DNA from: Gemmatimonadota bacterium
GTDB lineage: Bacteria; Gemmatimonadota; Gemmatimonadetes; Gemmatimonadales; Gemmatimonadaceae
DNA length: 35,750 nt
Reading direction: 5' to 3'
Assembly: GCA_016794835.1 (NCBI GenBank)
Contig: JAEUJL010000525.1
Span: forward strand, 1 to 35,750
Shown here: piece by piece, positions 14,376 to 33,444 of the stretch
Layout of the letters: every line of letters begins with the position of its first letter
Position numbering within the stretch: the first letter of the stretch is position 1
Made by a program: the position numbers and the translations under genes
Notes under the pieces: model-generated
What the model was told of the DNA's origin: nothing
What the model saw: only the letters and a program-made list of their open reading frames with translations
The model's database searches: none

Positions 14376-14413
14376 CGGTCACCTTCACGGTTTGGCAGCG
14401 ACCTGCGGTCGCC

Positions 14414-14764
14414 TTAGAAGACCACGACCTTCCCGGCCCACGTTGTCCACTCCGCCAGCTCATCGAGCGTGCTCCGCCTGGCACCGTCCACCAGCTCCGC
14501 ATCCGTCATCCCACGCGCAGCCATACAGGTCCCGCATACCCCGATCGGAACCCGCCGCAGCGTCAGCGTATGCAGCATGCTGTTGATGTTGTAGTAGCCC
14601 TGCGGCACGACGTGACCGCGCTTCGCGCACGCGGTGGCGTCGCCCAGGAGAAACAGGCGCACGTCGGTCCCCTCACGTTTCGCCAGTGCGCCGGCCAACC
14701 GAAGGGCGTTGTAGCTGCGCTCAGTTCCGTAGGGCGGGTCGTTCAGGATGAAGATCGTGTTCAT
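14414..14764 (-). CDS. DsrE/DsrF-family sulfur-relay protein
   Basis: 116 aa. Typical N-terminus (IFILNDPPYGTERSYNALRLA) and the Cys loop IGVCGTCMAARG. An AGGTGG RBS precedes the ATG. Confidence 0.8.
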   Translation of the reverse strand: MNTIFILNDPPYGTERSYNALRLAGALAKREGTDVRLFLLGDATACAKRGHVVPQGYYNINSMLHTLTLRRVPIGVCGTCMAARGMTDAELVDGARRSTLDELAEWTTWAGKVVVF

Positions 14765-14967
14765 GGTACCACCTGAGGTATCGGGTGATCACGTAGTTGA
14801 GTCGTGTTGTTCGTCCCGGTCTCCCGGTTATCCGCCTCCGCTCGTTCGTCCTCCGGCAGTAAGACCTCGGTCCCTGATGCATCACACGTCTCCGGGTCAG
14901 GTGGCGCGACGACGTGCGGGAAGTGTCTCGGGCATTCGGAGTCCGACGAGTACGCCTGACGCGGCGG

Positions 14968-18459: not shown

Positions 18460-19868
18460 GGTGCGCTCCCTGTAGGTTGTTTCTGGGTGGCTTCGCGGCG
18501 CTCCTCCTCGCTGAGTGGCACCAGCGAACCTCCCGCCGCGCGCTCCAGCTCTGCGCGCGTCGTCCAATACGCCGCCAACGCTTCCACGTATGACTGTCCC
18601 GCCTCGACCTCGGCTTGACGCGCCAACAGGAGGGTAAAGATGGTCTCCTGCATCGCGTTCACGAATCGCTGCATCTCGCTGACCACGAGACTCCGGGCGG
18701 GTAACACGTCCGTGCGCAGCTGAAGCGCCCGGGCGCGCGCCCCTGCCATGCGGGCAGCAAGCGTCGTCACCTCGGCCGACACATCCACCACAGCGGCATC
18801 GTGTAACGCGACCGACTGTCGCAACAGCGCGCGATCACGCGCAATCCGCGCCTGGCCGCGATCGAAAAACGGAAGAGGCAGCGAGAACCCGCCGCCGCGG
18901 AAGGCCCCATCCGGCTCCCGTTCATAGCCCAGGCCGATGGTCCCGTCTGCAAGAAGGGCGAACCGCTGAGTCAGTCCAAGTGCTCGCGCTCGCGTCTCCA
19001 CGTCCTGACGTCGTGCGCGCAGGTCGAGGCGGCGTACCAACGCGACCTGCACGACATCGCGCCCCGTCGGTCCCGCATCCTCCGGATCGGCGAGCCGCGA
19101 CGCTACCGTCCACGTCGTATCGGTCGCGTCCAATCCCATCAACCGCGACAGCTCGGCTCGCGTCACCTGTTGCTCTTCACGAGCCCGGATCAGTGACACC
19201 TGCGCCTGCCCCGCCATCGCCCGCTCCTGCGCCAACACAAGGTCGGGAAGGTTACCGGCGGCGTGCAACACGCGCGCGCTCGTGGCACTGGCCGACGTGG
19301 CTGCGCCCACGGTCGTCCATAACTCAACCATCTGCGTGGCGGCCTGTGTCATGACGTAGGCGACGCGAACGCGCTTCGCCAGGTCAATCACCGCATCGGC
19401 CACACGCTGCTCGGCAGCTCGCAACGCGCTCTCCGATACCCGGGTACGCAACGGGCGTTGCAGAGCATCCACCAGGGGGAGCACGACCCCCGCCAGTCGG
19501 ACGGAACCGGCTCCGGAGGCCAGCCGCTCCACGGAAACAACGGGATTTGCGAGCAACCCGGCTTGCCGCAGGTCCGCCTGCGCAAGGCCAACCTCCTCCA
19601 ACGTGGCGCTCAGGTTGCGGTTCATCAGGAGCGCCACCTTGACCGCCGTGTCGATAGGGACTTCGCCCCGGACCACTCGGCGCGCCCACATCGTGACGGC
19701 GGTGTCTGCACTGGTCGTTGCGGGCAGACGCCAGCTGCCACGTTCTGCCAACAACTCCTGCACCCGGCCGAGGTCCGTGGGTCTCCCGGCACTCGCGCAG
19801 CCGCTGATCATCCCGAGCAAGGCGAGGCAGGCTCCCCCGGCGGCGCCACGCGCAAAATTTGCGGTCAC
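18456..19868 (-). CDS. TolC-family outer membrane factor lipoprotein
   Basis: Lipobox LGMISGC. 470 aa with OMF repeat architecture. GTG start 4 nt after the DUF4198 stop. Confidence 0.8.
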   Translation of the reverse strand: MTANFARGAAGGACLALLGMISGCASAGRPTDLGRVQELLAERGSWRLPATTSADTAVTMWARRVVRGEVPIDTAVKVALLMNRNLSATLEEVGLAQADLRQAGLLANPVVSVERLASGAGSVRLAGVVLPLVDALQRPLRTRVSESALRAAEQRVADAVIDLAKRVRVAYVMTQAATQMVELWTTVGAATSASATSARVLHAAGNLPDLVLAQERAMAGQAQVSLIRAREEQQVTRAELSRLMGLDATDTTWTVASRLADPEDAGPTGRDVVQVALVRRLDLRARRQDVETRARALGLTQRFALLADGTIGLGYEREPDGAFRGGGFSLPLPFFDRGQARIARDRALLRQSVALHDAAVVDVSAEVTTLAARMAGARARALQLRTDVLPARSLVVSEMQRFVNAMQETIFTLLLARQAEVEAGQSYVEALAAYWTTRAELERAAGGSLVPLSEEERREATQKQPTGSAP

Positions 19869-19872
19869 GCAG

Positions 19873-21183
19873 CTAATTCCCCGCCGCGCGCCGCGTCCGC
19901 GACGACCAGTGGACCGCCGAGATGCGCCAGCCCTGCGGCGTCCGCACGAGCACCACGAGTTCAGCGCCCGCTGAATTTACCGCGCGGCCACGATAGTCAC
20001 CGGTGGTTGTGCTGGTCCCCGTCACCCACGCCACGTCTCCGCGAACCGTGACTCGACGTACGAGGCGGTCGCTCTTGATGGCCTGCGCGAATGCCATGTC
20101 CCCTGGCAGGTGATGCGAGCGGTACTCGTCCCTGGTCTCGACACCGCCAGACTCCAGGATCATCACATCGTTGGACAACAGCGAGAGTGCACCCGTACTG
20201 TCGCCAGCCGCGAGGGCCGCGTGGAACCTGGTCACGGCGGCGAGGGCCCCTGCCGAATCCGTGGTCGGCTGCACCCGCGGAAGTTCGACCACGCCATTCG
20301 CCTCGTGCTTGTGCCCGCCGGGCACTTCGGTCCGGAACACCACCGTCGCGAACGCTACCTCCCATCCTCGCGCTCCCGCGGCCGCCGGCGCTGCGTGCAA
20401 CGTGCGCACGTTCCAGAGTCCGTCGTGATCAATCGCGATGGTCGCTTCCCCATCACCGTTGGTGACCATGTGTTGGTCCTTCACACCGGCCGGAAGCGCC
20501 GTGCTGTCGGTGACCGCGGCTTCGGGCGCCCAACCCGCGTGCAGGTGCGCGCCGGGTAACGGCTTTCCGCGAAACAGTAGCTTCACCGTGAGCGTGCCAC
20601 CGGTCTTGACCACCGATGGATCCGTCGTCGGCACAAACTCAAGCGCGTGCCCTACCACCTTGGCGAAGGCGCGAGGCCCCCCCATCCCGACTTCCACAAA
20701 GGTCTTGGCATACTTCGTGGTGTGCTGTTCCAGGCTGTCAGTGCCAACAAACGCTCCCTCACTGTCGTACCGCTGTGACAGCTCCGGCGCCCCTTCCAGC
20801 GCGATGTAGCGCTTGAGCCCCGCCGGAAGTGTCCGCGTCGTGCGCGTCACAAGCGCGACACTCACCACACGCTGTCCTGCGGACCCGGGGCGCTGTTTCA
20901 ACAGCAGTGACTTGCCGGCGACCGTCAGGTCCTTCACTGCCAGGTCATCGTTCGCTCCGATCACGCGGGCCTCCGCCACGCGCTCCGGCGTCACCGCGGA
21001 CAGTGAGACCGGAAACTTCGAGCTCGTCTGGCCGCGGATCTCCATGCTCGCGTTCCCCATGACCATGAATGCGTTCGGGATGATCCAGAAGTCGTGAGCG
21101 GCGGCGACCGCCGCGGTGATCGCCAACCCGACAGAAACGACAGCCAACCTGAGCGGCGAGCGCAACGACTGCGTCGAATGCAT
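19873..21183 (-). CDS. DUF4198-domain periplasmic protein fused to a C-terminal NTF2/SnoaL-like (DUF4440-type) domain
   Basis: The signal peptide ends AAA|HDFWIIP, which is the typical DUF4198 mature N-terminus beginning with His. The central block is DUF4198-like (LEFVPTTDPSVVKTGGTLTVKLLFRGKPLPGA). The last ~130 aa look NTF2-like (VTRFHAALAAGDSTGALSLLSNDVMILESGG...GWRISAVHWS). Confidence 0.7.
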   Translation of the reverse strand: MHSTQSLRSPLRLAVVSVGLAITAAVAAAHDFWIIPNAFMVMGNASMEIRGQTSSKFPVSLSAVTPERVAEARVIGANDDLAVKDLTVAGKSLLLKQRPGSAGQRVVSVALVTRTTRTLPAGLKRYIALEGAPELSQRYDSEGAFVGTDSLEQHTTKYAKTFVEVGMGGPRAFAKVVGHALEFVPTTDPSVVKTGGTLTVKLLFRGKPLPGAHLHAGWAPEAAVTDSTALPAGVKDQHMVTNGDGEATIAIDHDGLWNVRTLHAAPAAAGARGWEVAFATVVFRTEVPGGHKHEANGVVELPRVQPTTDSAGALAAVTRFHAALAAGDSTGALSLLSNDVMILESGGVETRDEYRSHHLPGDMAFAQAIKSDRLVRRVTVRGDVAWVTGTSTTTGDYRGRAVNSAGAELVVLVRTPQGWRISAVHWSSRTRRAAGN

Positions 21184-21240
21184 GGTGCGACCTCGGGGTG
21201 AAGGAAAGTCCTGAAGGAAAGGAAGGAAGAACCAGACACG

Positions 21241-23376
21241 TTACAAGCGGGTACGGCGAAGTAACTGGGCGTTTGCGGCAACAATGATCGTGCTGGCCGA
21301 CATCAACACGGCGGCAATGGCAGGCGAGAGGAGAAATCCCCACGGGGCGAGCACCCCGGCCGCAAGCGGAATCGCAATGACATTGTAGCCAGCGGCCCAC
21401 CAGAGGTTCTGCACCATCTTCCGGTACGTCGCCCGCGACAACTCAATGATGCGCAGGACGTCGCGCGGGTCGCTGCGCACGAGGACGACGTCGCCTGCTT
21501 CCACTGCAACATCGGTTCCGGCACCGATCGCCACTCCAACGTCTGCCGTCACCAGCGCCGGGGCATCGTTGACACCGTCACCGACCATTAACACGCGCCG
21601 CCCCTCACGCTGCAACCCCTCAATGCGCGCCGCCTTGTCGCCCGGCAGGACCTGCGCGAGCACGACGTCGATCCCCACCTGTCGTCCCACGGCCTGCGCG
21701 ACCGCCTCGGCGTCTCCCGTAAGCATCACCACGCGCACACCCTCGCGCTTCAACCCGGCGACCGCCGGTGCCGACTCATCTCGCACCACGTCGGCAATCG
21801 TGATGGCCGCCACCGCGTCCCTGGCCCCGTCCCGCTCGCGCACGACGACGACCCGCGCGCGACCGTCGCCAGCGGCTCGCGCAATCGCCGTCTCGATCGA
21901 CGCGGACGGCCTGACGTTGAGCTGGGCGAGGAGCGCTGGTCCACCGACGTAGTACGTGGTCCCGTCGACGTCCGCGCGCACGCCCCGGCCGGGAAGCGAC
22001 TCGAAGAGGAGCGCGCGCGGGATCTGCAGCAGGCGGTCCCTGGCGCTGCGCACAATGCCCGCCGCGATGGGATGCTCGGAGTCCCCCTCAACGGCCGCCG
22101 CGATCCGGAGGGCGTCATCCTGGGTCATCGTGCCGTCGACGACCACCTCCACGACGCCGAACGTCCCCCGAGTCAAAGTTCCCGTCTTGTCGAAGACCAC
22201 GGTGTCCACGCGCCGAGCCTCCTCGAGGCCACGACGGTCGCGGATCAGGAGACCGTGCCGCGCCGCCAGCGTGGTCGAGTTGGCAATCACCAACGGAATC
22301 GCCATGCCCAACGCGTGGGGACACGCCACCACCAGGGTCGTCACCAGACGTTCAACGGCATACGAGGTCTCGGCCCCTGATAGTGCCCAGAAAGCCAACG
22401 TCGTCGCCCCCGCACCTAACGCTACCCATGTCAGCCAGAACGCTGCGCGATCGGCCAGTACCTGGGCCCGCGAACGCGACGTCTGTGCGGCAGACACAAG
22501 GCGCATGATCCCCGCCAGCACGGTGGTCTCGCCCGTTCCGGTCACCTCGATGCGCAGCGACCCCGACCCGTTGACGGTGCCCGCGATCACCTTCGCACCC
22601 TCGACCTTGTCGACCGGCGTCGATTCGCCTGTGATCGCGGACTCATTCACGGCACTGCGCCCGCTGCGGACGGTGCCGTCCGCGGGCACCGCAGATCCAG
22701 GCCGGACCAGCAGCTGGTTCCCCGGCCGCACGTCGGCCAAGGCGACTTCTTCCATCACCTCTGGGTCCGCACCCGCCCGGCGTACACGTGTCGCGGTCCG
22801 CGGGAGAAGCCTGGCGAGTTCACCCAGGGCTCCGCTCGCCTGCGCGATCGAACGCATTTCGACCCAGTGCCCCAGGAGCATGATCGTGACGAGGGTCGCC
22901 AACTCCTCCCACAGCGGCATGCCCGGATACCCAAGCGTCACTGCCAGACTGAAGGCGAAGGCCACACTGACGGCCAGCGCGATCAGCGTCATCATCCCGG
23001 GCAGCCGACCACGAAGCTCCCGATATGCCCCGACGAGGAACGGCCACCCCCCAATGCCAAACACCAGTGTGCCTGCCATGGCAGGCAGCCACGTGCTCCC
23101 GGGGAAGGCTGGCGCCGAATAACCAAAGGCGCTCTGCAGCATGTGGCCCCAGATCAGGGTCGGCGCGCTGAGGGCGAGGCAGGCCAGGAACCGCCGACGA
23201 AACATGCCGATGTGATGTCCGGCATGCTTGTCGCGCCCCCTGTCACCTGCCGTCCCTGGGTTCGTCCGAACGGACGATTCGTCCACCCTGCGATTCGCGG
23301 CTCGCCTCGCCGATTCCTCGGCATCCGCGTGCTCCCGATGACCCTCGACAGGAGCGTGGTCGTGGCCGTGGGTCAT
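21241..23376 (-). CDS. copB: Copper-translocating P1B-type ATPase, CopB-like (CPH motif, His-rich N-terminus)
   Basis: Motifs DKTGTLT, GDGVNDAPAL, TM6 VVACPHALG and MSASTIIVAANAQLL. His-rich N-terminus MTHGHDHAPVEGHREHAD...KHAGHH. No CxxC HMA domain. Confidence 0.92.
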   Translation of the reverse strand: MTHGHDHAPVEGHREHADAEESARRAANRRVDESSVRTNPGTAGDRGRDKHAGHHIGMFRRRFLACLALSAPTLIWGHMLQSAFGYSAPAFPGSTWLPAMAGTLVFGIGGWPFLVGAYRELRGRLPGMMTLIALAVSVAFAFSLAVTLGYPGMPLWEELATLVTIMLLGHWVEMRSIAQASGALGELARLLPRTATRVRRAGADPEVMEEVALADVRPGNQLLVRPGSAVPADGTVRSGRSAVNESAITGESTPVDKVEGAKVIAGTVNGSGSLRIEVTGTGETTVLAGIMRLVSAAQTSRSRAQVLADRAAFWLTWVALGAGATTLAFWALSGAETSYAVERLVTTLVVACPHALGMAIPLVIANSTTLAARHGLLIRDRRGLEEARRVDTVVFDKTGTLTRGTFGVVEVVVDGTMTQDDALRIAAAVEGDSEHPIAAGIVRSARDRLLQIPRALLFESLPGRGVRADVDGTTYYVGGPALLAQLNVRPSASIETAIARAAGDGRARVVVVRERDGARDAVAAITIADVVRDESAPAVAGLKREGVRVVMLTGDAEAVAQAVGRQVGIDVVLAQVLPGDKAARIEGLQREGRRVLMVGDGVNDAPALVTADVGVAIGAGTDVAVEAGDVVLVRSDPRDVLRIIELSRATYRKMVQNLWWAAGYNVIAIPLAAGVLAPWGFLLSPAIAAVLMSASTIIVAANAQLLRRTRL

Positions 23377-24794
23377 CGGGGAGTGCCCAGCCCCGCCGTC
23401 GCGGACGCCATCGGCGCCTCCACAGGCGCAGGCGTCGCCACCAGCACGGCGGTCACAAGGACCACCAACACCGCGACCGACAGCTCGACAGTGGCCACCC
23501 GCCGAAGCTGAGCGTTACCCGCGGGCGTACCCAGGCGAGGTGTCACCACGCGCCAGTTCCAGGCACCGGTCGCGCCCACAATGGAGAGCACGGCGATCTT
23601 GAGCAGGAGGATCTGCCCGTAGGTCGACGCGACGAGTCCGTCCCAGGAGCCGATGTTTTGCCAGCCGCGGAGCACGCCGGTCACGGCGACAAGAGCTGCA
23701 CACACCAACGCGACGCGTGAGAATCGCCCCACCAGCGCCGCCAGGGCGGAGTCCCTTTCGCCGTCCGGCAAACGCTGTGTTGCTGGCACACCCGCGGCGA
23801 GCAGCAGCAGCAGCGTCCCGAGCCATCCGCCGGCACCGGCGACATGCATCCCGTCCACCAGTACGGCGAGCGCGCCCCCGGTGGCGGCATGCCCTGAGAG
23901 GGCCGGCGTGAGCGCCATCCCAAGCACCCCGATGGCGGCAACGTGGTGAGGAGTCTTGCGGCTTCTGCCGGAGCCGAAGGTCCACAAGAGCATCAACGCG
24001 GCACCAAACTGCAGCCCCCACCCCCAACCCCACACGCTCCCTCCCACCAGGTCGCGCGCCAAATCGGCGTCAGCGAGGTTCCCGCCAAATGCGAGCACCT
24101 GCGCGCCCAGTCGCCCAACGGACAGCACAAGCGCGGCCGCCGCCGCGCCGCGCCCCAGCTGCCAGCTGCGCTCGAGTGCGGCAGCGGCGGCTGTCTCCGG
24201 CAGCGTTTCCGCCAGTCGAGAGAACACCACGGCGCCGAGGAGGACGAGGATCGAGGCGAACGTAAGCCAGCGGATCGCCACGAATCCGGGAGCGCCCACG
24301 CCGGCGGCCTCCGGAGCAGCAGCGAGTGGAGCTGAGGGCGCTGTAGATGGTGTCGGCGGTGGGGAGATTGGGGGAACCTGGGCGGGTACACCCTCCGGCA
24401 AGAGCGTGAACGTGAACTCACCGCGAACAGGATGTCCGTCCCTGCCCGCTACTTGCCACCGAACCGTGTGCACTCCCGCCGTCCAGGGGCCACGGACAGA
24501 CGCCACCAAGGTGCGCGGCATCCCTGCGGCCACGTGCACACCATCGAGCGCCACTGCCCCTGCCCCACCGGTGACCTCGATACGGCTGCCGGCGAGACTG
24601 ACGTCTTCATTGAACGTGAGCCTGATCTCCGATGGAGCGACCTTCAGCTCCGCCTTCGCCACGGGGACCGAGGACCGAAGGACACCGTGTCCGAACGCGA
24701 CTCGCGGCAGCAAAACAACGGCAACGACAGAGCCGATCAAGCCGACTCGGAATTTCACTGGGCGCCCTCCCTGGTGTCGGTGATTACCTGACAC
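23373..24794 (-). CDS. CopC-CopD fusion protein (YcnJ-like copper resistance/uptake protein)
   Basis: The signal peptide ends AFG|HGVLRSSVP. A CopC fold block ends VRWQVAGRDGHPVRGEFTF. A Pro-rich linker follows, then about 8 hydrophobic CopD-like helices. An ATGA overlap couples it to copB. Confidence 0.85.
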   Translation of the reverse strand: MSGNHRHQGGRPVKFRVGLIGSVVAVVLLPRVAFGHGVLRSSVPVAKAELKVAPSEIRLTFNEDVSLAGSRIEVTGGAGAVALDGVHVAAGMPRTLVASVRGPWTAGVHTVRWQVAGRDGHPVRGEFTFTLLPEGVPAQVPPISPPPTPSTAPSAPLAAAPEAAGVGAPGFVAIRWLTFASILVLLGAVVFSRLAETLPETAAAAALERSWQLGRGAAAAALVLSVGRLGAQVLAFGGNLADADLARDLVGGSVWGWGWGLQFGAALMLLWTFGSGRSRKTPHHVAAIGVLGMALTPALSGHAATGGALAVLVDGMHVAGAGGWLGTLLLLLAAGVPATQRLPDGERDSALAALVGRFSRVALVCAALVAVTGVLRGWQNIGSWDGLVASTYGQILLLKIAVLSIVGATGAWNWRVVTPRLGTPAGNAQLRRVATVELSVAVLVVLVTAVLVATPAPVEAPMASATAGLGTPR

Positions 24795-24870
24795 CGAGAA
24801 GATGTGATCAGGCTAGTTTTACGTAACATAAAGTGCTACGCCATCTGCTCCCCTGTCAACTCGCGCCTTC

Positions 24871-25782
24871 ATGACTCAGGCCTTGGCGTTTCTGCTCTTC
24901 ACTGGTGGCGCGTCGTTCCTCCTCGAGGCGCAGCCAGCGTCGCTCAACGGGTCGCTTGCGCTCCACACTGACTCCATGGGCGCGGGAGCCCCCACCATCG
25001 TCTTCCTCTCCGGTCTCGGTGCGACGTCTTCCTATTGGGCGAGGCGCGTGCGCCCTTTGGCGGAAACGCACAAGCTCCTCCTGCCCGATCCAATCGGATT
25101 TGGGCGCAGCGCGCGGCCCGATTCGACATACTCGCTGGGGTTCCACGTTCGCGCCGTGCAGCCGCTGCTTGATTCAGCCGGCCCCATCGTTCTGGTCGGC
25201 CACTCCTTTGGCGCGTTGGTGGCAGCCACCTACGCGCGGGCGCACCCTGAGAGCGTGCAGGGGTTGGTCCTGATCAGCGCGCCTGTCTACGCATCAAGAG
25301 CTGACGCCCTTGCGCAGCTCAGCCAGCGGAATCCCATCAAGCAGTGGGTCATGGCGCATCGGAGCTTCACCATCCTTCTGTGCAGCGTGACACGCCGCAT
25401 CGCACGGCCGCTGATCCCCCTGCTGGCCCCGGATCTACCCGGCGAGATCCGCGACGATGCCACGGCACACACCGCCCGTGCTGCGACATCAACGCTGCAT
25501 GACGGACTCTACCCCACAAACGGATTCGACCTCTTGCGCGCACTTCCGCTGGATCTGCCGGTCCTGATCATCCACGGGGATGCTGACCGAACGGCACCGT
25601 GGGCGGCACTCAAGCAGCTACTGGCAGAGCGACCAGAGTGGCAGCAGCTCGTCCTTCGAAACATCGACCATCATCCCCTCCTGCGCTCACCCGAGAGCGT
25701 AACGGAAGCAATTCGAGTCTTTGCCGCCTCGCCTCCACGACCCCCCGCGATCCTGGGAATGTCGCCCGACCTGCGCCCGTGA
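24871..25782 (+). CDS. Alpha/beta-fold hydrolase
   Basis: Oxyanion region IVFLSGLG, nucleophile elbow VGHSFGA, and late IIHGDAD and IDHHP blocks that fit a Ser-Asp-His triad. Confidence 0.8.
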   Translation: MTQALAFLLFTGGASFLLEAQPASLNGSLALHTDSMGAGAPTIVFLSGLGATSSYWARRVRPLAETHKLLLPDPIGFGRSARPDSTYSLGFHVRAVQPLLDSAGPIVLVGHSFGALVAATYARAHPESVQGLVLISAPVYASRADALAQLSQRNPIKQWVMAHRSFTILLCSVTRRIARPLIPLLAPDLPGEIRDDATAHTARAATSTLHDGLYPTNGFDLLRALPLDLPVLIIHGDADRTAPWAALKQLLAERPEWQQLVLRNIDHHPLLRSPESVTEAIRVFAASPPRPPAILGMSPDLRP

Positions 25783-25844
25783 GAACGTCGGAAATGTCAA
25801 GGACAACGGGTCGCCTCGCGTGGCCCATGTGGTCATCGGTGGGA

Positions 25845-26864
25845 TCAGGCACGATGTGGGCACTCGCTGTCCTTCCACCGGAGGACGCCGCCCTTGCAGA
25901 ATAGGTGGCCGAGGGGACCAGTCGCATGGTCGAGGCAGTGCGGTGGCGTCGCGTGCAGGGACCCGACGGGCAAGGGATGTAGCACCATCACCCCGGACGA
26001 CCACGCCAACAAAAGGGCGAGCACCGCACCTGTCAGTGCTCGCGTTGAGATGCGCGTTCTGACCACGGCGTCGACGCCGGTGAGCCGCTTGACGCGACGT
26101 TCGAGCAGATCGTACGGCTGAAACTCCACCACGGATCCAAGAGACTGTCGCGGGTTGGGGCCCCCAGCGAGGGTAACGAGAGCCGACGCCAGCTCGATCG
26201 GGAACCGCCCGGCGACCTCGCTATCCGCGTCGATTTCTGCTTCGTCCGCCAGATCATCCGCAACCCTCCGCAACACCGGCATCCAGAAGGCCACCATCGC
26301 CAGGAACCTCAGCAGCGAGAGCCGCAGCGGATCCCGGCGATCTGCGTGTACCCTCTCATGCATGAGCACCGCGGTGAGTTCCGTGCTGGTGAGCCGACCT
26401 CCCAGGCTCTCTGCCACGTAAACTCGTGGGCGCAGCCAACCCGCCGTGAACGCGGGGACCGGACTGTCCCTGAGGACACAGAGCTGCCGGGGCGCCAGCC
26501 CGGCAGCGGCCGCAGCATCCAGAAAGGGCGTGCTGGAGGACGCCGGGGTGATGGTGGCACCGCGAAGAATCGAGGAGGCGCGCACGGTCGCGCGCGTCCG
26601 ATCCGCGATCGCGACGACCACCCCAACGCCGAGCAACCAGTGAAACGCGGTGTGCAGCGGAGCCAACAGGAGGTGCAGCGACACCAGACAGAAACTCCCG
26701 ACATGTTCCAGCGTTGCCGGTAGCCAGTCGACCGCGCCCACGATGTGGTGGCCCACCACGGGGCTTGTGCTAAGGATGATCAGCAGCACGAGGGCCAGGA
26801 GGAGCCATCGCCGCCGCGCGTACTCTCGCACGCGAATGAGCCGATCGACCCCCGACGTCCGCAT
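25845..26864 (-). CDS. M56-family (BlaR1/MecR1-like) membrane metalloprotease with a Cys/His-rich C-terminal tail and no penicillin-binding sensor domain
   Basis: HExxH in LMHERVHADRRDP, followed by FWMPVL and EAEIDADSEV, as in peptidase M56. After the last TM (AVLALLLAWSSGVMVL) comes a 44-aa tail with 6 His and 3 Cys. ATG 26864 follows AAGGAAGAG; the tracked GTG 26870 (GTGA overlap with the blaI-like stop) is the alternative start. Confidence 0.85.
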   Translation of the reverse strand: MRTSGVDRLIRVREYARRRWLLLALVLLIILSTSPVVGHHIVGAVDWLPATLEHVGSFCLVSLHLLLAPLHTAFHWLLGVGVVVAIADRTRATVRASSILRGATITPASSSTPFLDAAAAAGLAPRQLCVLRDSPVPAFTAGWLRPRVYVAESLGGRLTSTELTAVLMHERVHADRRDPLRLSLLRFLAMVAFWMPVLRRVADDLADEAEIDADSEVAGRFPIELASALVTLAGGPNPRQSLGSVVEFQPYDLLERRVKRLTGVDAVVRTRISTRALTGAVLALLLAWSSGVMVLHPLPVGSLHATPPHCLDHATGPLGHLFCKGGVLRWKDSECPHRA

Positions 26865-26866
26865 GG

Positions 26867-27337
26867 TCACTCTTCCTTCGTGCCCTGCTCTCGAATGCGC
26901 CGGCGGACCAGCCTCGCCAGTTCCTCCAGTTGCTCGGGGCGGTGCTCCGCGAGCACATCGACGAAGGAGGCGGTCACGGCGTCAGGCTGCAGCGACAGTA
27001 TCCCCTCAACCACATGCCGCGACGCCATTTTCATGAACTGATCTTCCCTGAGGAGCGCCGAATAGTGGAAGAGCCCATCCCAGGAAGTGCGCGAGAGAAT
27101 CCCCTTGGCAACCAGCTTATTCAGAACCGTGATGGTGGTCAGGTGTGAGACGGTATGCTCCTCAAGCAGACGCATATGAATTACGCGCGCCGGCTGCGGT
27201 CGGTCGAAGCGCCACACCGTTCGCAGCACACGCGCCTCCAAATCACCCAACACCTTCGCCAAACCCTCTGCCGACAACCGCACCGTGTCCTGCAACCGGG
27301 GTGCGCTCAGCCGCTGCGCCTTTCGGCGGGATGTCAT
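26867..27337 (-). CDS. BlaI/MecI/CopY-family winged-helix transcriptional repressor
   Basis: wHTH block LGDLEARVLRTVWRFDRPQPARVIHMRLLEEHTVSHLTTITVLNKLVAKGILSR. It lies immediately upstream of the M56 gene, as in blaI-blaR1 pairs. There is no C-terminal CxCx4CxC. ATG 27337 is preferred because the tracked GTG 27373 falls inside the predicted promoter. Confidence 0.8.
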   Translation of the reverse strand: MTSRRKAQRLSAPRLQDTVRLSAEGLAKVLGDLEARVLRTVWRFDRPQPARVIHMRLLEEHTVSHLTTITVLNKLVAKGILSRTSWDGLFHYSALLREDQFMKMASRHVVEGILSLQPDAVTASFVDVLAEHRPEQLEELARLVRRRIREQGTKEE

Positions 27338-27364
27338 ACAGTCACGAGGAAGGAGGTTTGGTGG

Positions 27365-27394
27365 AAAGTACACACGTTTGATCCACTGTCAAAC
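27365..27394 (-). promoter_or_regulatory. Candidate blaI-like promoter overlapped by a dyad operator
   Basis: Dyad GTTTGA (27376-27381), 7 nt, TCAAAC (27389-27394). On the minus strand, TTGACA (27392-27387), 16 nt, TACTTT (27370-27365). The -35 element therefore lies inside the dyad. Confidence 0.4.
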
Positions 27395-27504
27395 TATGAA
27401 CCTCGGTCGCGCGGAATGCCCTGGACGGCCTACTCCTTCGAGCGACTGCGACACGGCCGTGGCCTTTACTTCCTGGCCTTCTGCGTCGATACTGTGCGTG
27501 AGAC

Positions 27505-27843
27505 ATGTCGTCACTCCGTCGAGCTTTTCGCGTTGTCCTCAGCCTCTTGGCCGCAACGGGGCTGATGCTTGCTGTGGGTGAGGAGCTCATCCCGGAGCTG
27601 CACGACGGGGACGCAGTCGCCACGGCTTCGGTGTCCCAATCCGGTCCACGGGACCTTCCCGGGGCCCCGCATTCGCCGACCTCGGCCCACATCTGTCACT
27701 GCCTCCACGCGCACGCCCTGGCGCCCGTGGCCACAAGGAGTGTGGCCCAGGGCGGCTACACAACGCGTCCGACACGCAGCCCCGACGAGCAGCTGCCCCG
27801 CAGCGCCTTCGGCGAACCTCCCCTGCGTCCACCGATCGGCTGA
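27505..27843 (+). CDS. Small secreted or membrane-anchored protein with an HICHCLHAH Cys/His cluster (putative metal-binding accessory protein of the czc-type operon)
   Basis: Signal/TM-like N-terminus MSSLRRAFRVVLSLLAATGLMLAV. Motif H-I-C-H-C-L-H-A-H at 27688-27714. Third-position GC is high after the signal region. It lies 59 nt upstream of the OMF gene. TTTACT (27465-27470), 17 nt, GATACT (27488-27493) is a possible promoter just upstream. Confidence 0.55.
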   Translation: MSSLRRAFRVVLSLLAATGLMLAVGEELIPELHDGDAVATASVSQSGPRDLPGAPHSPTSAHICHCLHAHALAPVATRSVAQGGYTTRPTRSPDEQLPRSAFGEPPLRPPIG

Positions 27844-27902
27844 CCTGCTGAGGCCCACAGCGGCGCCACCACGGCGTCGCTGCACCCCTTTGTAGAGTCC
27901 TC

Positions 27903-29156
27903 ATGTCACGTCGCCTGATCCTGGCGATGGTGGCCCTGTCGCCGACGCTCATCCTCCCGGATGACCTCGGCGCGCAGGCCCGTCGCTTAACACTCGAAGC
28001 GGCTCTCCGTGTAGCCGCGAGCTCACATCCCGACCTTCGCATGGCCGTCGCCGAGGTGGCTGCGGCAAGTGGCGCGGTTCGCTCCGCGCGCGCGCGCCCC
28101 AACCCCGAGGCCACCGCCACCCTGGGACCCGCCACAAACGCTGACGCTCGCTTGACGAGTGGTCAGGCGGGCATCGGGCAGACCCTCGAGCTCGGGGGCA
28201 AGCGTCGATTCCGCACCGAAGAGGCGTCGATGCTCGAGAGCGCCGCCGAATCACGGCTCCAGCGCACACGGGACCTGATTGCCCTCGGAGTCTACCGCGC
28301 CTTTTCCCTCGCCGTGCTCGCCGAAGAGCGGGTGAGGACCGCCACGGACGCCGACTCAGTGGGTGAAGCCTTGCGGCAGGCGGCCGCCGACCGCCTCCGG
28401 CTTGGTGCGGGCACGCTGCTTGAGCTGAATGTCGCCGCCGCGGCCGCGGCACGCGACCGCCGGAACCGCCTCCTGGCCGAGCAGTCTCTCACCGCCGCGA
28501 GGTACACCTTGCAGTCTGCCATTGGCCTTCCGGCCTCTGACGAGGTGCAGCCTGAAGGGCCGCTGCCACCCTCGATCGGCGGCGGCGCCGCACTGGACGC
28601 AGTCGCGCTGGTGCAACGGGCGTTGTCGCTCAGGCCGGATTTGCGCGCGCGCGCGCACGAACTGGAGGCGGCGTCTCGTCGCGCTCGTCTGGCGAGTGCC
28701 CTCCGGTGGCCCGACCCCGCCATTGGCATCTCGGCTGGACGCGCCGAGGACTTTCAGGTCCGGCTCTTCACCCTCTCGATGCCCCTGCCCCTCTGGAACC
28801 GAGGGGTTGGGGATCGCGCCGTCGCCGCCGCACGGCTCACACAGGCCGGGGTGGAGGCAGCCCGCGCGAGACAAGACGTTGAGCGTGAGGTGCGCGTGGC
28901 GTTGCAAGCCTACCAGCGCGCTGCCGAAGCGACCACCGCGTTCGAGTCACAGGTCGTCGAACGGCTACGCGAGAACCTGGACCTCGCGCTGGAATCCTTC
29001 CGCAGTGGCAAGATCAGCTTCTTCTCCTACTCGACGCTGCGCCGTGACCTCGTCGCCGCGCGCTTTGACTACCTCGACGCCCTCGCCGACCTGGCAGAGC
29101 GTGACTACGCCCTCGCCGCAGCCGTGGGCGAACGCCTCGGAGGATCCCGACCATGA
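27903..29156 (+). CDS. czcC: TolC-family outer membrane factor, CzcC-like
   Basis: 417 aa with OMF repeat architecture. First of three coupled genes ending in a CzcA-type pump. Confidence 0.8.
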   Translation: MSRRLILAMVALSPTLILPDDLGAQARRLTLEAALRVAASSHPDLRMAVAEVAAASGAVRSARARPNPEATATLGPATNADARLTSGQAGIGQTLELGGKRRFRTEEASMLESAAESRLQRTRDLIALGVYRAFSLAVLAEERVRTATDADSVGEALRQAAADRLRLGAGTLLELNVAAAAAARDRRNRLLAEQSLTAARYTLQSAIGLPASDEVQPEGPLPPSIGGGAALDAVALVQRALSLRPDLRARAHELEAASRRARLASALRWPDPAIGISAGRAEDFQVRLFTLSMPLPLWNRGVGDRAVAAARLTQAGVEAARARQDVEREVRVALQAYQRAAEATTAFESQVVERLRENLDLALESFRSGKISFFSYSTLRRDLVAARFDYLDALADLAERDYALAAAVGERLGGSRP

Positions 29157-30331
29157 ACCGACTCAGTTTCGTTGCACGTTACCTCGCCGCCGCCTTGATC
29201 GCCGGGTGCGGCGCGCCGACACCTGAGACCGAAGCCCCGGCCGACAGCAGCGCTGCGGTGGCGTCACACATCCGGCTCACTCCGGAGCAGGTCGCGTCAG
29301 CCGGCATCACCATCGGCGACGTCGTTCAGCGTCCGCTGGGAATTGCCATTGAGGCAAGCGCACAGATCGAGGCGATGCCGGATCGGGTGGGTCGCGTGGG
29401 GTCACGTGTGGCCGGGCGCATCGTGCGCGTGGCTGCTGGAGTTGGCGATGTCGTTCGCGAGGGCACAGTGCTCGCCGTCGTCGACTCGCCCGACCTCGCG
29501 CGGGCCAAGGCGGACTACCTGAGCACCCTGGCGGCGGCCAATCTCGCGCGCGTCACCGCCGATCGAGAGAAGGCGCTCTTCGAACGACGGATCAGCGCTG
29601 AACGGGAATGGCGTCAGGCGGAGGCCGACGCCATTCGAGCGGATAGCGAGAAGGAAGCCGCCGAGAACCGGTTGCACTCGCTCGGCGTTCCCGATGCCGA
29701 GCTCGCCGCTCTGCAGAATGAGGGGCACTACACATCGACCGTATCCCTCACCGCGCCGTTGAGCGGCACAGTCGTCGAGCGGTCGGCGTCGATAGGGCAG
29801 GCCGTGGAACCCGCCGACCTCCTCTTCTCCATCATGGACCTGCGCCAGGTGTGGATCGTGATGGATGTCTTCGAGAAGGACCTGCGGTTCGTCTCCGCGG
29901 GCCAGAGCGCGATCGTCACAGTCCCAGCGTATCCCGGGGTGACCTTCGCGGGGCGGGTTGCGAATGTCGGCGTTGTGCTTGAGCCCCAGACGCGCGCCGC
30001 CAAGGTGCGCGTCGTCCTCGCAAACCCGGATGGTCGGCTCAAGGCGGGGATGTTCGCGACCGTCGAGATTCAGGCTGCCACGCGGGGTGCGGGCGCCGGC
30101 ATGTTTGTGCCAGCCGGGGCCGTACAACGTGATGGCGCCGACAGCGTCGTCTTTGTGTTGCGCACGGACGGGGCCTTCGAACCGCGGCGCATCACGAGCG
30201 GACAAGTCTCGCGGCAGTGGATCCAGGTCCTGAAGGGCCTGGGCCTCGGGGACCGCATTGCCGTGACCGGGTCCTTCACGCTCAAGGCCGAGTGGCGCAA
30301 GAGTGAGCTGGGCGAATCCGATGAGCACTAG
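29153..30331 (+). CDS. czcB: Efflux RND periplasmic adaptor, CzcB-like lipoprotein
   Basis: ATGA overlap with czcC. Lipobox LIAGC. MFP blocks are present (VGSRVAGRIVRV, LAVVDSPDL, APLSGTVVERS, VWIVMDVFEKDL). Confidence 0.85.
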   Translation: MNRLSFVARYLAAALIAGCGAPTPETEAPADSSAAVASHIRLTPEQVASAGITIGDVVQRPLGIAIEASAQIEAMPDRVGRVGSRVAGRIVRVAAGVGDVVREGTVLAVVDSPDLARAKADYLSTLAAANLARVTADREKALFERRISAEREWRQAEADAIRADSEKEAAENRLHSLGVPDAELAALQNEGHYTSTVSLTAPLSGTVVERSASIGQAVEPADLLFSIMDLRQVWIVMDVFEKDLRFVSAGQSAIVTVPAYPGVTFAGRVANVGVVLEPQTRAAKVRVVLANPDGRLKAGMFATVEIQAATRGAGAGMFVPAGAVQRDGADSVVFVLRTDGAFEPRRITSGQVSRQWIQVLKGLGLGDRIAVTGSFTLKAEWRKSELGESDEH

Positions 30332-30339
30332 GAGACGCC

Positions 30340-33300
30340 ATGATTGAACGCATTCTTGTGTGGGCGCTGGGCAATCGCGTCCTCGTCCTGGTCTTCAGTA
30401 TCCTCCTGTCCGGTGCTGGCATCGTCGCATTGCGCAACCTGCCGATCGACGCCGTGCCCGACGTGACAAACGTTCAAGTACAAGTGCTGACCACCGCCCC
30501 AGCGCTCGGGCCGGAGGAAGTCGAGCGCTTCATCACCACGCCGGTGGAGATCGCAATGAGCGGCCTCCCCGGGCTGGACGAAGTTCGTTCGGTGTCCAAG
30601 TTCGGACTCTCCGCCGTGACCGTCGTGTTCGCCGAAGGCACCGACATCTACCATGCGCGCCAACTCGTCAACGAGCGCGTGCAGACGGCCCGCGAAGCGA
30701 TCCCGGAGGGGTACGGTGACCCCGAAATGGGGCCTATCTCCACCGGACTGGGGGAGATCTTCCAGTTCGAGGTTCGCGGGGAGGGCAAGAGCGCCATGGA
30801 TCTCCGATCCATCCTGGAGTGGGAGATCGCGCCGCGCCTTCGTCGCGTACCAGGTGTCGTCGAGGTCAACAGCTTTGGCGGCGAGCTCAAGACCTACGAG
30901 GTGCAGGTGGTCCCTGAACGCCTCACCCAATACGGCATCGCGCTGGGAGACCTGTTCGAGGCCGTGCGGTCAAGCAATGCCAACGCGGGGGGCGCGTACA
31001 TCGAGCGCAGTGGGGAGCAGTACCTCGTTCGGGGCGAGGGGCTGCTCACCTCGCTTGAAGACATTGGCAACGTCGTGGTATCGACCGACCGCGATGGCAC
31101 ACCCATTTACGTGCGACAGCTGGCGGACGTGCAGTACGCACCCCAGGTGCGTCAAGGTGCCGTGACGCGCGATGGACGCGGCGAGGTCGTCACCGGTATC
31201 ACGATGATGTTGCTGGGGGCCAACGCGCGGGCCGTCGTCACCGACGTCAAGGCAGCCGTGGACGCGATGACGCCAGACCTGACGAGGCTCGGCGTTTCCA
31301 TCGAGCCGTTCTACGATCGCACGGAACTGGTCGACAAGACCGTGGCCACCGTCACGCGCAGCCTGATCGAGGGTGGAATCCTGGTCATCGTCATTCTCTT
31401 CCTGATGCTGCGCAACCTGCGCGCGGGACTCGTCGTGGCCGCTGCCATCCCCCTTTCCATGCTCGGTGCGTTCATCGGTATGCGCGAGCTGGGGGTATCA
31501 GGCAATCTCATGTCGCTCGGCGCCATCGACTTCGGCCTGATCGTCGATGGGGCGGTCATCGTGGTGGAGAACGCCATGCGCCTCATCGCCGTACGTGGGC
31601 ATGCGCTCGGGCGTGCCCTCACGCGAGACGAACGGACCGACGCTGTCCTGACAGGGAGCCGCGAGGTGCTGCGGTCCACAGCGTTCGGCGTCAGCATCAT
31701 CGCGATCGTGTACCTGCCGATCCTGACCCTGACGGACATCGAGGGCAAGATGTTCCGCCCCATGGCGACTACCGTGCTCCTTGCCCTCGCGACCTCGCTG
31801 GTCCTGGCGCTCACGCTCGTTCCGGTGCTCGCCGCCCTCTTTCTCCCGTCGCATGTGTCAGAGGAGGAGAGCAGCATTGTCCGGCGCGCGCGGTCCTGGT
31901 ACGAGCCGTGGCTGGATCGTGCGTTGTCACGCCCACGGACCGCCTTGGGGGCTGCCGCCGCACTCTTCGCCGGCAGCCTCGCCCTCACCCCGTTCCTTGG
32001 CGCGGAATTCATTCCACGCCTCGACGAGGGTACCCTTGCCTTGCAGGCATGGAGGCTCCCCAGCGTATCGTTGGAGGAGTCCCTGCGCCAAACCACCCGC
32101 ATTGAGGCCGTCCTGCGCCGCTTTCCCGAGGTGACCACGGTGGTCTCCAAGACTGGGCGTCCGGAGATCGCCACAGATCCCATGGGCGTCGACATGTCGG
32201 ACATCCTTGTGATGTTGAAGCCGGAGTCGGAGTGGACGACAGCCGACACCCGTGAGGGGCTGATAGCGGCGATTGACTCGGCGCTCAGTACGTCGATCAG
32301 CGGGACCATCCTTTCTTATTCACAGCCCATCGAGCTGCGCGTGAGCGAGCTCATATCAGGGGTCCGGTCGGACGTGGCGCTCAAGGTGTACGGCGACGAC
32401 CTCATCGAACTCAAGTCGATCGCCGACGCCGCCGTTGCCGCCCTCTCGCAGATCCCGGGAGCCGCCGACGTAAAAGCTGAACAAACCGCGGGACTTCCCC
32501 TCCTTCGTGTCATCCTCGACCGCTCGGCGATGGCACGGTATGGAGTCCGCGGGGACGACGCGCTCGATGTCGTGAGCACGATCGGTGGCCGGGCGGCTGG
32601 GGTCATCCTCGAGGGAGCGCGGCGCTTTGACGTGCAAGTGCGGTTTGCCGAAGCATCTCGCAAGGACCCGGCCTTGATCGGGAACCTTCGGGTCCGGACG
32701 ACCTTCGGCGGTTCCGTACCGTTGTCGCAAATTGCGACCGTCCGCCTGGATGACGGTCCGGCGCAGATCAGCCATGAAAACGCCCGGCGCCGCATCACCG
32801 TCGAAATGAACGTTCGCGGTCGCGACATCGCCTCGTTTGTCGCTGACGCGCAGCGTCAACTCATATCGGCGAACGTCGTACCGGCCGGCTATTTCGTGGA
32901 ATGGGGGGGGCAGTTCGAGAACCTCAAGGCCGCATCGCGCACCCTTGCCCTCGTGGTGCCCGTTGCCCTCGCACTGATCTTCCTCCTGCTCTACATGAGC
33001 CAGGGATCCGTTGCCCTGGCCGGCATGATCTTCCTCAACGTCCCCTTTGCCATCAGCGGCGGGGTTCTCGCGCTCGCGCTGCGCGGCCTGCCCCTCTCGA
33101 TATCGGCCGGGGTGGGCTTCATCGCCTTGTTTGGCGTTGCGGTGCTCAACGGACTCGTGCTGATGGGTTACATCAGTCAGCGGCGCACCGAGGGAGCGAC
33201 GGCGCGAGATGCGGCACGTGACGGCGCGCACGTGCGCCTTCGTCCGGTCCTCACCACAGCGCTGGTTGCGGCCCTGGGGTTCGTGCCGATGGCCATCGCC

Positions 33301-33444
33301 TCCGGTTCTGGCGCAGAGGTCCAGCGCCCGCTCGCTACGGTGGTGATCGGCGGATTGATCACCTCAACACTCCTTACCCTCCTCGTCCTTCCCGCCGTCT
33401 ACGCGCTCGTCGAGAGCCGCCGCGACCGCCAGGTCCCATCATGA
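30340..33444 (+). CDS. czcA: CzcA-type heavy-metal efflux RND pump, divalent-cation type
   Basis: The N-terminus is collinear with CzcA as I recall it (LPIDAVPDVTNVQVQV, GTDIYHARQLVNERV). TM4 AIDFGLIVDGAVIVVEN carries the D/D/E proton-relay signature of divalent HME pumps. GGAG precedes the ATG. Confidence 0.95.
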   Translation: MIERILVWALGNRVLVLVFSILLSGAGIVALRNLPIDAVPDVTNVQVQVLTTAPALGPEEVERFITTPVEIAMSGLPGLDEVRSVSKFGLSAVTVVFAEGTDIYHARQLVNERVQTAREAIPEGYGDPEMGPISTGLGEIFQFEVRGEGKSAMDLRSILEWEIAPRLRRVPGVVEVNSFGGELKTYEVQVVPERLTQYGIALGDLFEAVRSSNANAGGAYIERSGEQYLVRGEGLLTSLEDIGNVVVSTDRDGTPIYVRQLADVQYAPQVRQGAVTRDGRGEVVTGITMMLLGANARAVVTDVKAAVDAMTPDLTRLGVSIEPFYDRTELVDKTVATVTRSLIEGGILVIVILFLMLRNLRAGLVVAAAIPLSMLGAFIGMRELGVSGNLMSLGAIDFGLIVDGAVIVVENAMRLIAVRGHALGRALTRDERTDAVLTGSREVLRSTAFGVSIIAIVYLPILTLTDIEGKMFRPMATTVLLALATSLVLALTLVPVLAALFLPSHVSEEESSIVRRARSWYEPWLDRALSRPRTALGAAAALFAGSLALTPFLGAEFIPRLDEGTLALQAWRLPSVSLEESLRQTTRIEAVLRRFPEVTTVVSKTGRPEIATDPMGVDMSDILVMLKPESEWTTADTREGLIAAIDSALSTSISGTILSYSQPIELRVSELISGVRSDVALKVYGDDLIELKSIADAAVAALSQIPGAADVKAEQTAGLPLLRVILDRSAMARYGVRGDDALDVVSTIGGRAAGVILEGARRFDVQVRFAEASRKDPALIGNLRVRTTFGGSVPLSQIATVRLDDGPAQISHENARRRITVEMNVRGRDIASFVADAQRQLISANVVPAGYFVEWGGQFENLKAASRTLALVVPVALALIFLLLYMSQGSVALAGMIFLNVPFAISGGVLALALRGLPLSISAGVGFIALFGVAVLNGLVLMGYISQRRTEGATARDAARDGAHVRLRPVLTTALVAALGFVPMAIASGSGAEVQRPLATVVIGGLITSTLLTLLVLPAVYALVESRRDRQVPS

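Follow-up and report, generated by a model that had tools for sequence, protein, structure and literature searches.

What does a BlaI-type repressor coupled to a membrane protease sense when the two lie among metal genes, and which of those genes does it control? The question is raised by a 35,750-nucleotide stretch of a Gemmatimonadota genome (contig JAEUJL010000525.1, assembly GCA_016794835.1; the whole stretch is called the window here), in which a gene for a winged helix-turn-helix (HTH) repressor of the BlaI/CopY family is followed by one for an M56-family protease. A first-pass annotation had read the pair as a metal-sensing proteolytic switch at the head of a czc-type efflux operon and, knowing of no characterised metal-responsive BlaR1/BlaI system, had called this a new signalling logic. 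The claim of novelty falls, since the cyanobacterial pair PetR/PetP has already been characterised as copper-dependent. The claim of a switch stands in part: the M56/BlaI module lacks the usual sensor domain and probably forms a proteolytic metal switch, although its conserved partners and operator indicate copper genes and not czc. The pair is most likely a resistance-controlling variant of PetR/PetP rather than a new signalling logic. More specifically, we give a probability of about 60% to a PetRP-like, copper-triggered proteolytic switch that acts on a copper-resistance regulon through TTTAC-N5-GTAAA sites, with sensing by His and Cys residues in the loop and tail of the M56 protein.

The pair, and the parts of the protease to which the argument refers, are as follows (TM, transmembrane helix):

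26867-27373, minus strand: BlaI/Penicillinase_R-family winged-helix repressor (168-aa maximal open reading frame, without a Cys-rich metal site).
25845-26870, minus strand: M56 zinc metalloprotease of 341 aa, with three predicted TM helices and without a penicillin-binding sensor domain.
26688-26750, minus strand: end of TM1 and predicted periplasmic loop, with H41, H42, H56 and C61 (each invariant or at least 90% conserved).
26607-26687, minus strand: TM2 with the histidine ladder H66, H73 and H77 and an invariant P71 (invariant in 88 homologues).
26346-26360, minus strand: catalytic motif HERVH of the protease, residues 171-175 (H171/E172/H175).
26235-26237, minus strand: candidate third zinc ligand of the protease, E212, within EAEIDAD.
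25980-26045, minus strand: TM3, the last hydrophobic helix before the tail.
25848-25979, minus strand: 44-aa C-terminal tail, residues 298-341, after TM3; predicted periplasmic metal-binding or disulfide/metal module.

The repressor, whose probable start is the ATG at 27337, belongs to the BlaI/MecI/CopY (Penicillinase_R) family: PF03965 scores 65.9 bits against a cut-off of 22.6 and is covered from profile position 1 to 114 of 115, and the best match in the PDB is 2G9W, the BlaI of Mycobacterium tuberculosis (E = 1.6e-4). It is not a member of CopY/TcrY, for which TIGR02698 gives 31.4 bits against a cut-off of 121.95. The CxCx4CxC motif of CopY is absent, as the first-pass annotation had said, and so is any CxC; the sole Cys, residue 12, lies upstream of the likely start, and an alignment of 60 repressor orthologues holds no conserved Cys. 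Three His (H66, H73 and H103) are conserved in that alignment. When the repressor is aligned with M. tuberculosis BlaI, His stands opposite two of them (H66 and H103) and H73 falls in the same aligned stretch, which suggests that the three are probably family features rather than a metal site. This, together with the absence of a conserved Cys, argues against direct sensing of the CopY kind.

The blaI stop and the M56 start share 4 bp (GTGA). The second protein matches Peptidase_M56 (PF05569, 39.9 bits; cut-off 31) and also Peptidase_M48 (PF01435), and PF05569 is present in 120 of 120 homologues among the matches listed. All of 88 homologues have H171, E172 and E212, and at least 90% of them have H175; the catalytic stretch aligns with HEYAH...NEVEAD of BlaR1, and the family profile covers BlaR1 residues 187-310. 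An AlphaFold2 (AF2) model built on the 88-sequence alignment (predicted local distance difference test, pLDDT, 81; predicted template-modelling score, pTM, 0.80) has helices at 10-44 and 62-104, a globular domain at 105-263, a further helix at 276-296 and a poorly defined tail. The best Foldseek matches to it are the cryo-EM structures of Staphylococcus aureus BlaR1 (8EXP, 8EXQ and 8EXR; probability 1.0, template-modelling score 0.43 for 8EXP), followed by Ste24 and HtpX. Profile, HExxH with a downstream Glu, and a BlaR1-like fold make the protein an M56 peptidase. It is no beta-lactam sensor-transducer, as the NCBIfam BlaR1 models NF033108 (cut-off 1200) and NF000326 (cut-off 400) reach 12-14 bits; beyond the last TM helix there are only 44 residues, and a Pfam search of the protein found no transpeptidase or penicillin-binding domain. 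Profile and structure searches have thus upheld what had been read from the sequence about both proteins, namely a BlaI/CopY-type gene coupled to an M56 gene with HERVH, and no penicillin-binding domain.

Where the tail lies can be predicted from charge. Across the 88 members, Lys and Arg make up 26% of the N-terminus, 22% of the region after TM2 and 22% of that before TM3, as against 4.5% of the 17-residue loop and 5.9% of the tail. By the positive-inside rule, the N-terminus and the protease domain are predicted to be cytoplasmic and the loop and the tail periplasmic, and the helices of the AF2 model likewise place the tail outside the cytoplasm. The loop is predicted to correspond to the external loop of BlaR1 and PetP, and the tail to take the place of the BlaR1 sensor domain.

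Both outer segments are rich in potential metal ligands. The tail holds exactly the 6 His and 3 Cys that had been counted at the outset, in the motif HPLP ... HC-x9-H-x2-C-x11-C-x-H, and the N-terminal region noted as His-rich carries H41, H42, H56, C61, H66, H73 and H77. Conservation was assessed in alignments of 32 and 88 homologues (42-72% identity). In the larger one, H298 (of HPLP), C312, H322, C325, C337 and H339 of the tail are invariant and H311 is at least 90% conserved; in the whole M56 protein conservation is complete or reaches at least 90% for 12 of 14 His and for 4 of 5 Cys, at a mean column identity of only 46%. The spacing of the tail motif is identical in 65 of the 88 members, and a 48-residue tail holds 10.3 His and Cys on average. 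Loss of the tail Cys and His among orthologues had been named beforehand as the result that would count against a sensor; they are conserved across the 88. The loop, GAVDWLPATLEHVGSFC, contains no Met, and the PetP-type Met pair (M53, M58) is absent from it. The spacing of the TM2 histidines (i, i+7, i+11) would put H66, H73 and H77 on a single face of the helix. Heme ligation by these TM histidines was considered and found no supporting evidence.

Which genes accompany the pair elsewhere is informative about its role. A scan of one genome per GTDB species yielded 80 loci, all from Gemmatimonadota metagenome-assembled genomes (MAGs) except one 1.2-kb contig binned as Acidimicrobiia. In tblastn searches with the window proteins, blaI stands directly upstream of the M56 gene in every locus with enough sequence, and the recurrent neighbours are a multicopper oxidase with an outer-membrane efflux protein (OEP), a P-type ATPase like that at window 21241-23376, CopC/CopD and DUF4198; neighbouring triplets of the resistance-nodulation-division (RND) type are mostly of the window's second, Cus-like kind. 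A census of the 80 loci plus the window (codon log-odds gene caller, clustering and Pfam) gave these numbers of loci with each family:

CopD/CopCD: 35
P-type ATPase: 32
OEP: 30
Multicopper oxidase: 29
572-aa protein without an assigned family: 27
SnoaL/DUF4440: 25
DUF4198: 19
Membrane fusion protein (MFP): 18
Phenol_MetA_deg-like barrel: 18
RND: 15
CopC: 13
DUF305: 10
PcoB: 6

Among the 54 loci of at least 10 kb, 38 carry CopC, CopD, multicopper oxidase or PcoB within 10 kb and 50 carry some metal family, so that orthologous pairs are indeed syntenic with metal genes. Two contigs with independent gene calls and precomputed Pfam agree. In one, from Longimicrobium, BlaI-M56 is succeeded by a cupredoxin gene, a pair of genes that have no confident Pfam match and CopC-CopD, and an RND triplet lies upstream; in the other, a 130-kb Gemmatimonadota contig, two unannotated genes stand between BlaI-M56 and CopC-CopD, and genes for DUF4198, DUF305 and CsoR are close by. 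The family-wide partners are a copper set. They include a protein of about 555-605 aa that Pfam does not confidently assign, encoded downstream of the M56 gene in 27 loci (for example L057 3649-5367, L064 13126-14805 and L081 10630-12294) and usually grouped with a SnoaL/DUF4440 protein of 176 aa and an outer-membrane barrel (Phenol_MetA_deg-like, 270-300 aa). Genes for the barrel and the SnoaL protein often carry the operator described below in front, and all three proteins are candidate copper-handling components. Several MAGs have two paralogous blaI-M56 pairs on different contigs (L018/L040, L043/L048 and L031/L051), which suggests several parallel switches per genome.

The operator ties these copper genes to the repressor more directly. 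The window features concerned are two:

17098-24794, minus strand: predicted regulated copper cluster, comprising a CopC-CopD fusion, a P-type ATPase (CPH, His-rich N-terminus), DUF4198-SnoaL, OEP and multicopper oxidase (by Pfam and ATPase motifs).
24818-24832, no strand assigned: TTTACGTAACATAAA, the window's only strong operator match (position weight matrix (PWM) score 27.2, within the range of 148 family sites).

When the 250 nt in front of each of 75 blaI genes were searched for dyads without bias, TTTA-N7-TAAA turned up in 32 of the sequences and in none of the shuffled ones. Over the 80 loci (1.09 Mb) the dyad occurs at 148 sites, against 0.95 expected from composition-preserving shuffles of 100-bp blocks. 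Coding sequence takes up 83% of this DNA, yet 137 of the sites fall outside gene bodies. Their consensus, (C/T)TTTAC-G-N3-C-GTAAA(A/G), has the core TTTAC-N5-GTAAA. Genes that start within 350 nt of a site (ranges come from two clusterings of the same genes) encode BlaI (21), SnoaL/DUF4198 (about 21-26), CopC/CopCD (18-20), the outer-membrane barrel (12-14), OEP followed by multicopper oxidase (11-14), multicopper oxidase (8-11), DUF305 (9), P-type ATPase (3-6) and DUF4396 (3). Of 74 loci, 38 have a PWM site of at least 13 bits ahead of blaI, and 37 of 71 have one in the 300 nt that follow the M56 stop codon, compared with 11 of 240 random windows from the same loci; the site 3' of M56 precedes copC, copCD or the barrel gene. 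The families of the window's copper cluster are thus both the commonest neighbours and the operator-adjacent genes of related loci, and TTTACGTAACATAAA lies 24 bp upstream of the start codon of copCD, which heads the CPH-ATPase/DUF4198-SnoaL/OEP/multicopper oxidase cluster. In the window's closest relative, locus L001, an equivalent operator lies between a hydrolase gene and copCD. This alpha/beta hydrolase gene (window 24871-25782, plus strand; L001 6117-7118) separates M56 from operator and copCD in the window and L001 only, and the ancestral order was therefore blaI-M56-operator-copC(D). From its CPH motif and His-rich N-terminus, the ATPase at 21241-23376 is one that we take to be P1B-3, or CopB-like (by established signatures; Nies 2003; Arguello 2003).

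As a mechanism, the BlaI-family repressor would bind TAC-N5-GTA-type dyads (consensus TTTAC-N5-GTAAA) at copper-gene promoters: in the window at that of the copCD/CPH-ATPase/DUF4198/OEP/multicopper oxidase cluster, and, in other loci, also at that of the pair itself and at those of Cus-type RND operons, DUF305 and further genes. The M56 protein would lie in the inner membrane with its N-terminus inside, the short loop outside, the zinc-protease domain inside and the 44-aa tail outside. Copper on H41, H42, H56 and C61 together with H298, H311, C312, H322, C325, C337 and H339 would activate the cytoplasmic protease, the TM2 ladder H66/H73/H77 might relay the signal, and the activated protease would cleave the repressor and so derepress the regulon. 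That copper is the ligand, that it binds at loop and tail residues, that the repressor is cleaved and that control runs in this direction we infer from what was observed: the families to which the proteins belong, conservation, the charge signal for topology, synteny, and the enrichment and position of the operator.

Several points weigh against this mechanism. The tail is modelled at low confidence (AF2 pLDDT 49-71) and the geometry of a binding site therefore cannot be read from the model; periplasmic Cys are often disulfide-bonded, and those of tail and loop could be structural. The operator at 24818 lies between copCD and the divergent hydrolase gene, so that the choice of copCD as the regulated gene in the window leans on other loci. 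The window's own blaI promoter carries no consensus operator (a different palindrome stands there), and in about half of the loci the consensus site is missing ahead of blaI. An equally possible role of CopC/CopD and DUF4198 is the acquisition of copper. Finally, the likeness to PetP consists in its published description, shared Pfam families and the N5 spacing, and the two loop Met that are PetP's proposed ligands are absent from the Gemmatimonadota M56 protein.

How far the family extends depends on where the line is drawn. A word-indexed search found 342 M56 relatives, nearly all of 335-370 aa, the named ones being "M56 family metallopeptidase" of Gemmatimonadaceae or Longimicrobiaceae, and a profile search of 1.84 billion cluster representatives returned only 123 matches at E <= 1e-30; the family is therefore narrow. 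A tblastn search of the M56 protein against the PLSDB plasmids gave no match. Lower-scoring profile relatives are M56 proteins of 300-350 aa with different ligand-rich tails: H.AH...CPHHH..H, DCTESRCATH...CRTHCKTMEHKH, CPxC-rich ones and MMAMPMMPGCPVMCGRH; one subfamily, P0254, has a Met-rich tail. These sister subfamilies too have blaI-M56 beside metal genes (Cus-type RND, P-type ATPase or multicopper oxidase). One sister pair is divergent from genes for P-type ATPase, OEP, CusB and RND; in a Deltaproteobacteria MAG a TCTAC-N5-GTAGA dyad and an OEP/CusB/RND operon come after the pair, and the RND protein of this operon has AIGVMVDGAIVLVEN; a third is followed by cytochrome c, SnoaL and a P-type ATPase with a heavy-metal-binding domain (HMBD), and a fourth by a CTAC-N5-GTAAC dyad and a cluster of Metal_resist/LTXXQ, DsbD_2 and multicopper oxidase. 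Such contexts support extending the idea of the M56 protein with a ligand-rich tail as a metal sensor beyond one phylum. The expectation that M56 proteins with Cys/His tails would stand beside heavy-metal-efflux RND operons is borne out to the extent that related subfamilies adjoin Cus-type RND, P-type ATPase or multicopper oxidase genes, but adjacency to the czc type is not conserved beyond L001. A wider generalisation is tentative, and we rate it as possible more than probable: that short M56 proteases with a ligand-rich loop or tail (His/Cys; CxxC-, CPH- or Met-rich) form a widespread class of one-protein transmembrane metal sensors that destroy BlaI-type repressors, and that they are the principal copper-resistance regulators of Gemmatimonadota, with a phylum-wide TTTAC-N5-GTAAA regulon. 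On this view the invariant His/Cys set, with the ladder in TM2, would reveal how copper is detected across the membrane by PetP-type proteases.

The placement that first drew attention to the pair suggests another account, in which it senses Zn, Cd or Co, or metals generally, and controls the operon divergent from it. Three features bear on this:

27505-35435, plus strand: divergent operon encoding a small secreted His/Cys protein, OEP, MFP, a Czc-type RND protein (DFGLIVDGAVIVVEN) and a P-type ATPase with CPC/N-x7-K/DxG (by Pfam and motifs).
27376-27394, no strand assigned: perfect palindrome GTTTGA-N7-TCAAAC between blaI and the divergent operon, overlapping a TTGACA box.
5738-5756, no strand assigned: second TTTGA-N7-TCAAA palindrome, upstream of the Cus-type RND operon.

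The divergent arrangement of the pair and the small-ORF/czcCBA/P-type ATPase operon (ORF, open reading frame) is real, with OEP, MFP, RND and ATPase identified by Pfam, and the 130-bp intergenic region that the two share holds the perfect palindrome. The RND protein (30340-33444) carries DFGLIVDGAVIVVEN, with DFG..DGA..VEN, and we take it to be Czc-like; from CPC, N-x7-K and DxG we likewise take the ATPase to be of the Zn/Cd type (both by established signatures). His and Cys ligands would also suit Zn, Cd and Co, and Czc-type RND genes lie within 10 kb of the pair in L009, L023, L050, L052 and L062. Direct adjacency is limited to the window and L001, however, and in L001 a lipoprotein-like gene with a Met-rich C-terminus (3822-4409, plus strand; MMTSGAMPRAGMGAGMMGKG...HGMM) separates the czc operon from blaI. 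(The product of that gene looks like a periplasmic protein that binds Cu(I).) Copper genes dominate among the conserved partners, and the family operator is found neither in 27374-27902, ahead of the czc operon, nor near the Czc-type operons of other loci; without a conserved adjacency and without the operator, the position at the "head of the czc operon" is probably incidental. The palindrome at 27376 differs in spacing from the family operator by 2 bp and recurs before the Cus-type operon, not before a czc one. It was rejected as a conserved family operator since TTTGA-N7-TCAAA is absent from all 80 related loci (1.09 Mb; none expected by chance), and may belong to another regulator or be a variant peculiar to this lineage; an FNR/CRP-type site was also set aside, as the spacing misfits the canonical TTGA-N6-TCAA. 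The czc-type operon thus adjoins the pair, control by the pair is not supported, and we regard this account as unlikely.

Two further accounts concern what is sensed, and by which part. In one, the M56 protein would sense the thiol/redox state of the periplasm or envelope stress through Cys disulfides, and copper would have no more than an indirect effect, by oxidation. C61, C312, C325 and C337, all four conserved, are in the periplasm or close to it, the compartment of Dsb chemistry, CxxC-rich tails occur in related subfamilies and DsbD_2 stands beside the pair in one related locus; against them are the ten conserved non-catalytic His, the Met-rich tail of P0254, typical of Cu(I) sites, and a regulon that is specific to copper and not a general envelope-stress set, all of which make a redox sensor improbable. 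In the other account, the His/Cys motifs would be structural (a zinc or disulfide mini-domain) and the signal would come from a partner such as CopC, a cupredoxin or the conserved downstream proteins, or the repressor itself would sense the metal. The genes directly 3' of M56 do encode conserved periplasmic or outer-membrane proteins (CopC, cupredoxin, the 270-300 aa barrel and the 555-605 aa protein) and the repressor has three conserved His, but these His are probably family features, by the M. tuberculosis BlaI alignment, and the repressor is without Cys. Moreover, the PetRP pair alone gave copper-dependent degradation in E. coli extracts, and tails that vary among subfamilies yet stay ligand-rich are what is expected of ligand-binding modules. 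We hold this second account to be quite improbable, and a copper-sensing M56 protein remains the preferred reading.

Further features of the window were noted. The first-pass annotation had listed two-component, MerR/CueR, CzcR/S and ECF regulators as absent from the island, and these are absent as worded; the island is not free of regulators, however, as it contains the following:

16239-16976, minus strand: ArsR-HTH/rhodanese fusion regulator (by Pfam).

This gene is part of a sulfide/persulfide-type module at 13206-16976 (minus strand), which also encodes an MFS transporter, a DsrE-like protein and a Pyr_redox_2/FCSD-type (SQR-like) flavoprotein. The island also holds the large copper cluster and a second, Cus-type RND operon, and these two prove to be the setting that matters for the pair. 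The RND protein of the Cus-type operon (8988-12350) is presumably CusA-like, given AIGAMIDAAIVMIEN and 44 Met (again by established signatures). The small ORF that heads the czc-type operon (27505-27843, plus strand, 112 aa) has a signal-peptide-like N-terminus and a conserved HSPxSAHICHCLHAHA motif and no Pfam match. It is kept in frame in L001 at 79% identity, with substitutions distributed 15/11/35 over the codon positions, and is therefore a real gene; its product is possibly a periplasmic metal-binding protein. A weak operator-like site, ATTATGTAGGCTAAA (4832-4846, PWM score 15.7), precedes by 42 bp a gene for a SAM-dependent methyltransferase (4874-5614), and a DHOR di-haem oxidoreductase gene is found at 1129-2328. 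A sigma-70 promoter scan of 25600-28000 returned no sites.

If the copper reading is true, a proteolytic BlaI/M56 logic governs copper resistance across a poorly studied soil phylum, with an operator and a regulon that can be computed. The invariant, sharply defined His/Cys residues would then be direct targets for mutagenesis in the study of how PetP-type proteases sense copper. Annotation would gain as well, since genes labelled "M56 family metallopeptidase" and "BlaI/MecI/CopY" are easily mistaken in metagenomes for regulators of beta-lactam resistance.

Among known systems, BlaR1/BlaI and MecR1/MecI of S. aureus share with the Gemmatimonadota pair the M56 fold with HExxH and a downstream Glu, the BlaI-type winged-helix partner and the logic of proteolytic derepression. 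They differ in that the Gemmatimonadota M56 protein has no C-terminal transpeptidase-like sensor and one TM helix fewer, and in that its signal is not a beta-lactam. BlaI/BlaR of M. tuberculosis (Rv1846c/Rv1845c) provides the closest solved structure to the repressor, a distant relationship; its BlaR also lacks a penicillin-binding domain, but has no Cys/His tail motif, and we know of no link of this pair to metal genes. CopY/TcrY of Firmicutes belong to the same winged-helix family and control copper export genes through a TAC...GTA-type dyad (the cop box TACAnnTGTA). CopY senses Cu(I) itself through its C-terminal CxCx4CxC and has no dedicated M56 partner, and its dyad has an N4 spacer where that of Gemmatimonadota has N5. 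Control of copper resistance is usually ascribed to CueR, CsoR, CopY or CusRS/CopRS, and a proteolytic BlaI/M56 copper switch is to our knowledge known only from the cyanobacterial choice between plastocyanin and cytochrome c6. A literature search on M56/BlaI with copper or metal resistance, and on Gemmatimonadetes, found only PetRP, CopY and a non-metal BlaIR of Pseudomonas.

The closest parallel is therefore PetR (Slr0240)/PetP (Slr0241) of Synechocystis sp. PCC 6803, a copper-dependent BlaI/BlaR-type switch between plastocyanin and cytochrome c6, in which PetR is degraded only when PetP and copper are both present, in vivo as well as in Synechocystis and E. coli extracts (Garcia-Canas et al.). 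PetP, a membrane protease of the M48/M56 type, lacks the sensor domain of BlaR, and its gene overlaps the petR stop codon; PetR binds GAC-N5-GTC, and two conserved Met (Met53/Met58) in the loop between TM2 and TM3 of PetP are the proposed copper ligands (Garcia-Canas et al.). The PetRP regulon consists of petE, petJ and two small genes; a 2023 review gives PetRP no role in copper homeostasis genes and leaves the BlaR homologues of heterotrophs unexplained. Both systems thus join a BlaI/CopY-family repressor without the CopY Cys to an M48/M56 protease without a penicillin-binding sensor domain, in the same gene order with overlapping start and stop, and in both the external loop before the last N-terminal TM helix is a proposed sensing site, the dyad is N5-spaced (GAC-N5-GTC in PetR, TAC-N5-GTA in the Gemmatimonadota family) and copper is the signal, or the proposed one. 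They part in the sensor, as PetP has four predicted TM helices, the loop Met pair and no ligand-rich tail, whereas the Gemmatimonadota M56 protein has three predicted TM helices, a His/Cys loop, the TM2 ladder and the 44-aa tail; and they part in phylum and in regulon, which is petE/petJ for PetRP and a predicted set of copper-resistance genes in Gemmatimonadota.

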